Of a DNA stretch of 64,000 bases, positions 24,460 through 29,034 are shown piece after piece (position 1 is the stretch's first letter; each line of letters starts with the position of its first letter). The notes below the pieces were generated by a model that saw only the letters and a list, made by a program, of their open reading frames with translations, searched no databases and was not told the DNA's origin. The DNA lies in assembly GCA_965287045.1 (NCBI GenBank), contig CBDIYR020000003.1:9424001-9488000 (forward strand). Reading direction: 5' to 3'. This DNA comes from Carcharhinus amblyrhynchos (lineage: Eukaryota). The position numbers and the translations under genes are program-made.

Positions 24460-24942
24460 ATGGGAATCCTTCTTGTTTTCACCGTGTGTGCCTATTTACC
24501 CCGTGAGTACCGATCAAAGTAACCCACATTGTGTGGATTGGACATAACGCTGCCCCAATTCCATCTCAGTTACAGACAGTGTGTGGGGTTTTAGCCCCGT
24601 TGTGCAGTTCGGCTCTGCTGGACTATTAAACTCTCTGTGTTTAATTTGCAGGATTTTTTAGTCAGTCAGTGACACAAAGCCCGGCAGCGGAGACCCGGAA
24701 GGAGTGTCAGTCTCTCACCATCAACTGTGTCTTCAGTGGTGTTTATGAGTTACAAAATGGCCATTTCTTCAGACAAACCCAGACCGGGACAGAGCGGGAG
24801 CGGATCTCCAGCGGAGGGAGATTTATTGTGCTGGTGAATAAAGCAGAAAAGACATTTTCGCTGGAAATTAGGGATATGAGAATTGAAGACACCGCCACCT
24901 ATTACTGTAAAGCTCAGCACTGGTACTACGCACATGGAACAC
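24460..24942 (+). CDS. NAR-TCR (IgNAR-like) V gene segment with long germline CDR3 extension (leader 24460-24502, V exon 24652-24942)
   Basis: Leader MGILLVFTVCAYLP; QSVTQSPAAETRKECQSLTINCVFSGVYELQNGHFFRQTQTGTERERISSGGRF..FSLEIRDMRIEDTATYYCKAQHWYYAHGT. It has a VNAR-type short FR2/CDR2, YYCKA, a non-canonical FR1 Cys and no Trp41. Confidence 0.92.
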
Positions 24943-24970
24943 CACAGTGGAAGACAGGAGAACAAATACT
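24943..24970 (+). promoter_or_regulatory. 12-bp-spacer recombination signal sequence
   Basis: CACAGTG + gaagacaggaga (12 nt) + ACAAATACT; no nonamer at the 23-nt position. Confidence 0.85.
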
Positions 24971-25297: not shown

Positions 25298-25336
25298 CAT
25301 TCTTGTACTGGGCTAAGTGACAGCGCTGACACTGTG
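25298..25336 (-). promoter_or_regulatory. 23-bp-spacer RSS of the NAR-TCR J
   Basis: cattcttgt (6/9 match to GGTTTTTGT) + 23 nt + CACTGTG, directly 5' of the J. Confidence 0.82.
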
Positions 25337-25389
25337 GGGAGAATGGAGATTTACAGATGGGTCTGGGACGGTGGTGACTGTCTCAGCTG
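25337..25389 (+). CDS. NAR-TCR J gene segment
   Basis: GEWRFTDGSGTVVTVSA (IgNAR-J-like GxGT motif) followed by a phase-1 donor G|GTAAGT; upstream RSS present. Confidence 0.9.
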
Positions 25390-27592
25390 GTAAGTGACTC
25401 CAAATCCGCCAGTGTTACAGGCGATCCAGGTTAGTTTTCACATTCAGCTCATTCTTGTAATCTGATCACTTCAATCGTCTGTGACTACAAGAGCAACGTG
25501 GGGGAAGGGGGTTCCTGTGGAAGATTTTCAACTGCAGTTTTAGATTTGGGAGCAGAGTAGGAAACTGGAGTCGGGTCCGAGTGTGGGACCAGATTGAAGC
25601 GGTGTGTGACCACCAAATGTGAGACATCGGACGGGGAAGGCAATGTCATTGACCCCATAATGACATTTAATGATTTAGTGGTGGTATTGGATAATACTAA
25701 TAACACGCGGGCTTCCTGTCTCCCAAGTGGTTTCAAATAGCGCACATTGTGAACACTATGGCTTCTGCCCTAGTGTGAACTTTGATTCTCCCTGTGGCTG
25801 TTATGAAAGGTTATCCAGTCTGGAAACGTTGACTCTATTTTCTCACCACATATGCTGTCAGACCTGTTGAGGTTTGCCAACATTTTTCTGTTTTTGGTGT
25901 TGATATAAATCTTTAGCATTATTTTATAAGTTCGTTAATGTACGTGTGGGGAAAATGATTCAGATTAAAGGAACGTTGAATATGATGCCAGTGTGATAAA
26001 AGAAAGAGAAATTGGGCAGAAAGTGGAGTGCGGTGCCACATGGAGTGGTTGCAGTGAATGGCGAAAGGACTTTTTATGACGGTGTGAAAAATCGAGCAGG
26101 GAGAAGGACGCAGTGTTCAGTGTACAAAGGTTTCGTTGGGGATCGAGTGTGAGAGGGGAGTAGGCACGTGTGCCGTGCTGACAAGCGTACTGTGAGCCGA
26201 ATGGCCAATTTCTGTTCTGTACAATCTGTAGAATGTAAAATGCAGAGAGGGTTCTGACTGCAAAACATGGGGAACAATCAACCAATGCATGGAAGGAATT
26301 GAAAATCTCAGGCACATTGAAAAGGCAAATTTCACAGTGACTAATAGTGAACAAGTCAGTCGGGGAAACTGAGCACGCTGATCTCAACTGACATTGGAGA
26401 CTGTCTGGGACAGGTTCTCATGTTGGCAAAAAATCGCAAGCAGTAGGAAGAGAACAACTCAGATTTAGAAATCCGCTGGTATTAACTGTAAATCATTCTA
26501 ATAATATAAATTACAAAATTGATGGACGAAACTGTGTAAAGAGTTAAACTGTATCAAAGTTTGATCTTTGACACATATATGCAATATCAGTTTCACTTAA
26601 TCAGTTTCGCTGGGCGAGTATGACTGTCTTCGCCTGAATCTTGCTGTGAGCCAGGATATAAAAAGGCAGGGTTACCCTCAGTTAATCTACTCTGGACAGC
26701 AATTGTTATAGTGAGAAGAGTGAACTTTCATATAATTTCCTCAGGTTTGGAAATCGCCAAGAAGCAGACACTAAATAGAAAGCATAAAATGAGAAACCAG
26801 AGAAGGGCATCATTCTGGCCAAGTGGCTATTCTTTGCAGGTGCTGCTGAACTTTACATATTTTACCTTCCTGCTCTTTAAAACTCCCGGAATTCTAATCT
26901 GATTCTGGAGATTTCTTCCATTTGCTGTTTTAAAATGACTACTGAATATGTTTCCAATATCACAGCTGGAAAATATCCTACTGAGCAAAATTCGCTGTGT
27001 GATAAAATAAAAATCATCTAAATATTTGCCCCTCGCTCTTTTGCCATTTTTTTCAATTCGTTCTAGGGATGTGGGTGTTCCTAATTGCTTTTGAACTGGT
27101 TGGCTTGTGAAGCCCATTTTAGAAGGCATTTAAGGGGAACCACATTGCTGTGGATCTGGAGTCACATGTACGCAGCACAGATAAGAATAGCAGATTTTCT
27201 TCCCTAAATGACCTTAGTGAAACAGATGTGATTTTAACGACAAGGGACAATGGTTTCATGGTCATCATTAGACTTTGGTTCAACTATTTTTGTGCAATTC
27301 AAATCAAGATTGAATTGAAATTCATATTTCACCATCTGCCGTGGCACCATTCGTTCCTGTGTCCCCAGGGTATTCCATGGATTACTAAATCTCTGGACTA
27401 ACTAATCCAGTGATAATATCACTATGCCACCCTCTTATCAATTATAGTTAATAAATGTCGAAGACCCTTCAATGAAATAATTGCGACAAAATGGTCAGCT
27501 ATTGACGCGATTATGTTTCCCCGGGCAAACTAACATGCAACGCAGGTAATGGCATCATAGAAATATTGTGCATTATTTTATGTGTTCGGCAG

Positions 27593-27898
27593 AATCCAGT
27601 TCATCTGTGTCACAGACCCCGTCTCTCCAAACCCGTGCTGCTGGCGACACCATTACTTTAACCTGCGAATATCAGGGATTTTGTCAACACACACTCGACT
27701 GGTACCGTCACTCGCCAGGACAGAGCCCAAAATACCTGCTTAAGGGATACACATCAGGCGAGGAGAACAAAGAAAACGCTGCCGGGGCGAGAATTTCTGC
27801 TTTTATCGACCCAGTCGAAAAAATCAGCCGGTTAAAGATCTCCAAGCTGCAACTGAGCGACTCCACTGTGTATTACTGTGCACTGAGTCGGCGCACAG
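27593..27898 (+). CDS. Leaderless 'supporting' TCR Vdelta of the NAR-TCR cassette
   Basis: AG acceptor at 27591-27592 in phase with the J donor (G+AA=E); ESSSSVSQTP..LTCEYQGFCQHTLDWYRHSPGQSP..SDSTVYYCALSRR; extra Cys in CDR1. Perfect RSS: CACAGTG 27899-27905, 23 nt, ACAAAAACC 27929-27937. Confidence 0.93.
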
Positions 27899-28441
27899 CA
27901 CAGTGATGCAGAATAGGGAGAGAGCTGTACAAAAACCTAGACGTGGTGAGGATTTCAGAGACAGTGATACAGAACAAGGAGGGAGCTGTACAAAAACCTG
28001 GACATGGTGAGGATTTCAGAGACAGTAATACAGAACAAGGAGAGAGCTGTACAGAAACCTGAGCATGGTGAGGATTTCAGAAACAGTGATACAGATCAAG
28101 GAGAGAGCTGTGCAAAAACCCGATATGGCGAGGATTACATACACAGTGATACATAAAAAGGAGAAGCTGTACGAAAACTTGGACATGGTCAGGTTTTCAG
28201 ACAGTGATGCAGACCACGGAGAGAGCGGTACAGAAATCTGAACATGGTGAGGATTACAGACACAGTGATACAGAACACGGAAAGAGCTGTGCAAAAGCCC
28301 GGACATGGTGAGGATTTCAGACACAGTGATACAGAACACGTAGAGAGCTGTACAAAAACCTGAACATGGTGAGGATTGTAGACACGGTGATAGAGAACAC
28401 TGGGAGAGTTGTACAGAAACCTGAACATGGTGAGCATTACA
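27899..28441 (+). repeat. Tandem array of nine ~61-bp units, each a 23-RSS (heptamer-spacer-nonamer) plus a ~22-nt linker
   Basis: Heptamers start at 27899, 27960, 28021, 28082, 28142, 28200, 28261, 28322 and 28383; each is followed after 23 nt (22 in unit 5) by an ACAAAAACC-like nonamer. Confidence 0.95.
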
Positions 28442-28620
28442 AGAATCTGTAATTTATGTTCAGGCTTTTATTCAGCTCTCTGTGTTCTGTATCACTATGT
28501 CTGTAATCCTCACAAAGCTCAGGCCTCCGTCTAGCTATTTCCCCATTTGAAATCTCTATGCCTGTAAACTTCACCATATTCAGGGTTATGTACAGCTCTT
28601 TCGTGTTCTGTGTCACTGTG

Positions 28621-28926
28621 CTGTGCGCCAACTCATTTCACAGTCAGAATCAGCAGAGTCGCTCAGTTGAAGTTTGGAGACCTTTAACCGGCTGATTCAG
28701 ACTGAAGATTGGATAGAAGCAGAAATTCTCCCCCTGACAGCATTGGCTTTATTCTCCTCTCCTAAAGTGTGTGTCTGAAGCACACATTTCGGAGCCTGTC
28801 CTCGGGTCTGACGGTACCATTGTATTGTGTACTGACAGAGACCTGAATATTCATAGCTTAAAATAAACGTGTCATCGGCAGCACAGGTTTGTACAAGGGA
28901 ACGTGGTGACACAAGTGAGCTGGAAT
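28621..28926 (-). pseudogene. Inverted pseudogene of the supporting Vdelta
   Basis: Minus strand: SSSLVSPR..ILSYEYSGLCQYTIQWYRQTRGQAP..GEENKAN..RISASIQSSV*ISRLKVSKLQLSDSADSDCEMSWRTAQ; Cys23 lost, in-frame stop, YYC degraded. RSS CACAGTG at 28620-28614 plus degenerate array units down to ~28460. Confidence 0.9.
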
Positions 28927-29034
28927 CTGCACTGTAGAAATAAAATAAATTGTTTGTTTATCACCGTTTATCCCGGAAACTTGTCAACCGGGTGAATACC
29001 TATCGGTTGCAGCAAAATGTTTAATTGAATTTAG

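Follow-up and report, generated by a model that had tools for sequence, protein, structure and literature searches.

The window, by which we mean the whole 64,000-nucleotide stretch of shark DNA analyzed, contains a NAR-type V(D)J followed by a supporting Vdelta gene, behind which lies a tandem array of recombination signal sequences (RSSs) that abuts the inverted array of a second, decayed V. The features, in order along the window, are:

24460 to 24502, + strand: leader exon of the NAR-type V (ATG, hydrophobic codons, GT donor)
24652 to 24942, + strand: NAR-type V exon, an open frame in translation, without the W of WYRK and with a Cys in RKECQS
24943 to 24970, + strand: 12-RSS behind the NAR V-D, from the RSS scan
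25298 to 25389, + strand: NAR J with a 23-RSS, the signal on the - strand (25298-25336) and the coding part at 25337-25389 (FTDGSGTVVTVS)
27593 to 27898, + strand: supporting Vdelta exon (open frame, CDR1 cysteine, splice acceptor, Pfam V-set E 6.5e-15)
27899 to 27959, + strand: unit 1, the V's own 23-RSS with consensus heptamer and nonamer, a 22-nt linker, and an in-frame TGA
27960 to 28141, + strand: units 2-4, heptamer CAC lost
28142 to 28260, + strand: units 5-6; unit 5 has a 22-nt spacer and keeps CAC, unit 6 has lost CAC through a 2-nt boundary deletion
28261 to 28444, + strand: units 7-9, none of the five critical RSS bases lost; unit 8 is a consensus 23-RSS
28445, one base, no strand: fusion centre; the arrays on both sides end 0-2 nt from the next heptamer position
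28446 to 28620, - strand: three more units of this repeat, all decayed, behind the pseudo-V
28621 to 28920 (far end approximate), - strand: inverted supporting-Vdelta pseudogene with a stop codon, a decayed second Ig cysteine motif, and 71% identity to the upstream V

The identity of the V as a NAR-TCR supporting Vdelta, proposed in the initial annotation, holds up: a NAR-type V and J with RSSs of their own lie 2.2 kb upstream of it, it carries the extra cysteine in CDR1 (GFCQH), and no intact leader was seen on reading positions 25390-27592. These hallmarks (a leaderless V with a CDR1 cysteine behind a NAR V-D-J), and those of the NAR V itself, are given in PMC1845163. Hydrophobic, leader-like codons ending at a GT, with no in-frame ATG, occur at ~26800-26841 and may be a dead leader that once belonged to the supporting V. 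A PDB search returned only generic antibody V matches. The NAR V (24652-24970) was likely joined to its D in the germline already, since a 12-RSS follows it; an unjoined NAR V on contig C40, by contrast, stops sooner, at an RSS of its own, and its D stands apart and carries a 12-RSS. Ordinary TCR V segments are found on the + strand (23-RSSs at 2795, 22092, 43027, and 56734) and on the - strand (8211, 10972, 17534, 39911, and 59720), several of them lying in inverted duplications.

The array (27899-28444) consists of nine head-to-tail units of ~61 bp, each comprising a 23-RSS and a 22-nt linker and starting at 27899, 27960, 28021, 28082, 28142, 28200, 28261, 28322, and 28383; TRF reports a period of 61, 8.9 copies, 81% matches, and a score of 681. 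Most of what had been called from the letters alone, namely nine ~61-bp units with their heptamer/nonamer pairs, the RSS nature of the units, the 22-nt spacer of unit 5, the loss of CAC in units 2-4 and 6, and the in-frame TGA of unit 1 (translation RRTAQ*), is borne out; the end had been placed at 28441, and the array in fact runs to 28444, where it is fused to the inverted array. Eight near-consensus 23-RSSs fall within 543 bp, compared with none in each of 300 base shuffles. Across the genome (2.92 Gb), an exact pattern of two near-consensus 23-RSSs spaced 5-35 nt apart matches at ten places, every one of them within this gene family, and the reversed control pattern has 0 matches. About 18% of sites differ between one unit and another. 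The array qualifies as a minisatellite: its units stand head to tail and fall within 10-100 bp, their copy number varies, and their history is mosaic. We counted a 23-RSS as functional if it has CAC, nonamer positions 5-6, and a spacer of 23+/-1: a rule of five critical bases only, as these are defined in PMC212687. Units 1, 5, 7, 8, and 9 of the window satisfy it and units 2, 3, 4, and 6 fail it, so that by this rule the former could be cleaved and the latter could not. A donor-like splice motif (ATG|GTGAGG) is present in each linker of 27899-28444 and is not conserved above its neighbours.

Every other V in the window had been thought to carry a single RSS, which the inverted pseudo-V with its three decayed units contradicts. 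The linker of unit 9 and the pseudogene's third linker are joined over a single base, each ending within 0-2 nt of the next heptamer position, and this tail-to-tail junction is common to all four clade A loci (defined below) and is bridged by contigs of two runs (X7 and X23). The fusion does not fit 12/23 pairing: one such reaction cannot join two ends of the 23 type, and producing it would take a fold-back through a hairpin, a NAR-D intermediate of the 12/12 kind, or a violation of the rule. We consider it a likely fossil of germline RAG cutting at distal RSSs. As between a hairpin duplication and a join of two different V arrays, upstream homology is not diagnostic, and grouping clade A with the pseudo-V in a single clade remains acceptable under the AU test (p=0.185).

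We searched the genome for further members of the family with a protein query, scoring the best 150 of 770 candidates at a threshold of at least 60% identity, so that all counts are lower bounds, and obtained at least 29 supporting-V matches and at least 4 inverted pseudogene matches. An array of 3-10 units is present at 14 of the 29 listed supporting Vdelta genes, as well as at the pseudo-V, and is absent from the other 15; it is therefore not unique to the copy in the window. The genes fall into four clades:

Clade A: at least 4 loci on C40, including the window; 9, 10, 8, and 8 units
Clade B: at least 2 loci; in-frame TGA in the V; 6 units, an insertion with 10-nt direct repeat flanks, 1 full and 1 partial unit
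Clade C: at least 8 loci on C39; 3 units
Clade D: at least 15 loci on C39; no array

In the V tree, clade D is sister to clade B (98/93), and C, the pseudo-V, and A lie outside. Because the array-less genes nest inside array-bearing clades, the array is, on this topology, ancestral, and its loss in clade D is confined to genes whose V was fused to a D; among the listed loci, no lineage lacks it except where joining deleted it. In clade D the end of the V runs into the 3' end of a Ddelta, whose 23-RSS now serves the fused gene, an arrangement that we read as a germline V-D join through unit 1. Five of the 15 listed clade D loci (L026, L034, L035, L037, and L041), scattered over the tree, are missing an identical 10-nt stretch ahead of the D heptamer, a repeated or converted deletion and perhaps an open-and-shut RAG event. 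Not all array ends lie at a heptamer, that of clade B being mid-spacer. Across the listed genes, the five-base rule is satisfied by 14/14 first units and 25/57 distal units.

C39 (e.g., 10612001-10652000 and 2035001-2075000, loci L056-L059 and L063-L066) contains many compact NAR-TCRdelta clusters among Ig-type C1 exons, with at least 23 supporting V adjoined by D-J homology and an open Cdelta exon in two of three clusters inspected; the TCRdelta there is of the cluster type, in part already joined in the germline, and calls to mind the TCRmu clusters of marsupials. Two clade C clusters on this contig (C39:4308600-4315000 and 2036900-2041400) contain pre-assembled NAR domains: 3-4 NAR V exons in tandem whose in-frame joint to J is already present in the germline. 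On C40 we find at least three D-J-Cdelta cassettes (9.52-9.54, 8.53-8.55, and 6.32-6.34 Mb) with 4-5 J each and IgH-like V nearby, the three intact cassettes all being on the - strand. Cdelta was located by cross-cluster comparison; the best 150 of 1024 candidates in a C1-set scan included no Cdelta, and a J pattern search with a consensus 12-RSS gave one match, on another contig (C2).

Clade C carries what appears to be the trace of a join deep in the array. At all eight listed loci, the third linker directly abuts 13 nt that match a Ddelta (C40:9539463) at 10/13 (chance 1e-4), a match that includes microhomology and is 6/9 (chance 0.01) beyond the shared TATA, after which come the 3' 23-RSS of this D and a J. 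Measured against a full-length linker and the intact D, each side is 2 nt short, with a 4-nt (TATA) overlap, and the D's 5' 12-RSS is absent (5/28 identity there). The junction thus has the properties of a coding joint: both RSSs are gone, the ends lie a few bases from the cut sites, and there is no N addition; little N addition has also been described for shark Ig germline joins (PMC2193156). Given the 12/23 rule and the lost 12-RSS of the D, we infer that this paired with a 23-RSS standing where a fourth unit would lie, with a heptamer position that follows from the array period. Clade C is therefore likely to preserve a germline RAG coding joint at a distal RSS. The V exons are open in 8/8 listed loci, and the unit-1 signal shows 0 changes in 16 columns, where 2.3 would be expected at the flank rate; of the two clusters inspected, one still has a J together with an open Cdelta exon, and the other has lost Cdelta. 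Two array ends, then, coincide with the point at which a distal unit, since lost, would be cut, and the fossil evidence amounts to two events. Further germline joins in the locus are the clade D V-D and the pre-joined NAR VDJ.

We compared the window with 4 of 23 runs, one from each of four labelled organisms and four studies, all of them contigs. Pieces of the array were found in 4/4 runs:

X5: 28008-28271, 8 differences, no gap
X7: 28049-28267, 9 differences; 28326-28980, 28 differences, bridging the fusion centre
X13: 27790-28076, 44 differences, V end and three units
X23: 28356-28599, 31 differences, bridging the fusion centre

Among the matches listed in the 4 runs, no single piece spans the whole stretch. 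The array is present in independent runs and, as shown above, at other copies; neither outcome that the initial annotation named as refuting it was observed. As the V-region pieces are about 4-8% different, the four runs look like other species. The letters of the clade C junction occur, as loose ends, in three of the four (X5, X7, and X13). Contigs of X5 and X13 matching 27749-28358 represent a further array-bearing supporting V with ~5+ units, a different second unit, and no clade match here.

We examined how the units evolve using a unit tree of 53 distinct of 71 units, with pseudo-V units left out and the last four columns of terminal units masked. Distal units of L022 and L024 differ at 5/224 sites vs 45/424 in the intron (p=7e-5), and those of L024 and L025 at 11/224 vs 6/430 (p=0.017); such mosaic likeness among paralogues fits gene conversion as its probable source. 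Between clades, the distal spacer-plus-linker distance (0.11-0.20) is about one-third of V dS (0.36-0.55), and the 22 nt past the nonamer show 2-7 differences in 8 between-clade pairs vs 8-18 in 15 ordinary-V pairs (ungapped; the control leaves out the V at 2795, whose frame was not recognized); selection on the whole unit explains this closeness as well as conversion does. A 3' gradient of synonymous similarity in the V exons, as would mark conversion spreading from the array, is not seen over the few sites available. In a column test of low power (61 columns, weak tree, conversion), changes in the distal units number 25 over 16 signal columns vs 71 over the 41 columns of spacer and linker (p=0.73), and no better conservation of the binding motif than of filler is seen in them; first units have 2 changes in 16 signal columns vs 19 in 41 (p=0.085), and the contrast between unit 1 and the distal units is not significant (Fisher p=0.15). 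The 23-nt spacing, which had been taken to be specially kept, shows no such preference: by eye, distal units at open V genes have 2 spacer indels vs 3 linker or boundary indels. Beside open V genes, 15/47 distal units keep the critical bases, vs 10/10 in the pseudogene clade B, and 12/12 of the open V genes have a dead unit 2, which hints that live neighbour units are costly, on the strength of few independent mutations.

Taken together, these sequence comparisons suggest that the locus probably carries a cleavable, concertedly evolving passenger array whose spare signals have at times been cut by RAG in germ cells, the spare units most likely being tolerated passengers rather than a selected device. 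The array would have begun as an old minisatellite formed from the supporting Vdelta's own 23-RSS and 22 flanking bases, its copies likely being kept alike between genes by unequal crossover and gene conversion. Unit 1 would make the productive V-to-D(J) join, and the CAC-intact distal units (5, 7, 8, and 9 in the window) would compete for RAG. A join at a distal unit would retain unit 1 with its in-frame stop and be non-productive, leaving unit 1 free for a J 12-RSS; such a join in the germline would have given rise to the eight listed clade C genes, in which rescue through unit 1 to J would still be possible. More speculatively, RAG breaks in the array may feed the homogenizing conversion. 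The window V would have to reach the D-J-Cdelta cassettes of C40 by inversion, since the three intact ones are all on the - strand; other D segments may exist. Should the array merely drift, it would still be a notable fossil record, not a new regulatory system. We think it unlikely, if worth stating, that the array goes further and renews itself, with germ-cell RAG breaks expanding and homogenizing it and the distal signals serving in thymocytes as spare non-productive cuts that allow a second-chance join via unit 1. If true, a doubly rearranging receptor would have a built-in editing or throttling device for its second rearrangement.

A selected decoy or second-chance device, in which purposely non-productive distal joins lower or delay use of the V and unit 1 is kept for a later V-to-J join, seems to us improbable. 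The eight listed clade C genes are the intermediate that it predicts (a V, intact unit 1, two units, and a Ddelta), with every V open, the unit-1 signal unchanged, and a J and Cdelta exon kept in one of the two clusters inspected; furthermore, the array persists wherever a lineage did not delete it by joining. A device of this kind is nevertheless hard to reconcile with distal CAC columns that are not conserved (5 changes in 3 columns), a unit 2 that is dead beside every open V gene, and critical bases that survive less often beside open V genes than in the pseudogene clade, even if few independent events underlie that difference. The decoy or serial-editing reaction suggested in the initial annotation is thus possible, as the eight germline genes indicate, and evidence for a selected function did not emerge. 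Ranking behind it is a selected RAG landing pad, whose cleavage-dead nonamer units next to unit 1 would raise local RAG occupancy and boost the rearrangement of a promoterless V. RAG1 does bind the nonamer according to PMC212687, units 2-4 mostly keep a usable nonamer without CAC, which unit 2 lost separately in clades A and C, and the between-clade likeness of the units exceeds neutral yardsticks. Against this, the conservation test proposed together with the landing pad goes the other way: the distal nonamer changes at the pace of the linker (16 changes in 9 columns vs 37 in 18, p=0.67, in the low-power column test), positions 5-7 included (6 changes in 3 columns), clade C distal units outpace their flanks (34/118 vs 268/1845, p=1e-4), and the number of units ranges from 3 to 10.

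The lack of motif-specific conservation in distal units would also suit an inert minisatellite, never cut at these units, whose junctions at heptamer positions arose as microhomology deletions or fold-backs. The 4-nt overlap at the clade C junction and the compatibility of a fold-back inversion with the AU result both agree with it. We nevertheless hold it quite improbable, and the least probable of the readings that accept the array as real: the clade C deletion ends a few bases from RAG cut positions on both sides and removes the 12-RSS of the D exactly, V and D lie about 24 kb apart in clade B cassettes, and unit 8 is a consensus RSS. That the array is an assembly artefact is hardly credible. 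Tandem repeats are prone to mis-assembly, and two near-identical clade A loci, L022 and L023, are one unit apart; but the divergence between units, the recurrence of their variants by position in paralogues, and the matching contigs of independent runs, above all the X5 piece and the shorter X7 piece, refute it as regards the existence of the array, if less firmly as regards the exact number of units.

In the literature consulted we came across no account of true RSSs arrayed in tandem at the V of an antigen receptor; key nurse-shark and NAR-TCR papers and their supplements, outside that scope, may bear on novelty. A V-gene RSS array is absent from the parts consulted of PMC12227049, PMC6795676, PMC3964593, PMC9248892, PMC2996982, and bioRxiv 10.64898/2026.09.05.749481, and the elephant-shark supplement text, possibly not the relevant supplementary note, mentions neither NAR-TCR nor RSS. 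The gene itself resembles the NAR-TCR supporting Vdelta of cartilaginous fish in being leaderless, in its CDR1 cysteine, and in its place behind a NAR V-D-J, as laid out in PMC1845163; unlike here, an RSS array is not mentioned in the texts consulted on it. At mouse TRBJ1-7 and TRBJ1-2 and human TRGVB, recombination can use a second RSS farther out, and the coding joint then retains germline DNA together with the first RSS (PMC6857471), as proposed here for distal joins; those alternative signals are single, dissimilar, and cryptic, whereas here a true RSS is repeated 3-10 times, family-wide and across organisms. In the germline-joined Ig genes of sharks, likewise, RAG-like joins that were trimmed by a short length and gained little N sequence became fixed in germ cells (PMC2193156); here the joins are in TCRdelta, and one lies deep in an RSS array with three RSSs left inside the joint. 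RAG can also reinsert RSS-bearing signal-circle DNA beside an RSS (PMC1820826), and the idea that the unit came from a V-D signal circle, or through reintegration of one, was considered and rejected, the units being only 61 bp long with no 12-RSS remnant and no signal joint.

The RSS array is thus apparently a variant of known parts, undescribed so far. Ordinary GC-moderate minisatellites likewise vary in unit number and undergo unequal crossover and conversion between copies; the shark array differs from them in that its unit is a recombinase signal. It therefore offers a natural substrate for how RAG picks among adjacent signals, and it adds TCRdelta cases of germline RAG activity, including a probable non-proximal join older than the split from at least three other labelled organisms.
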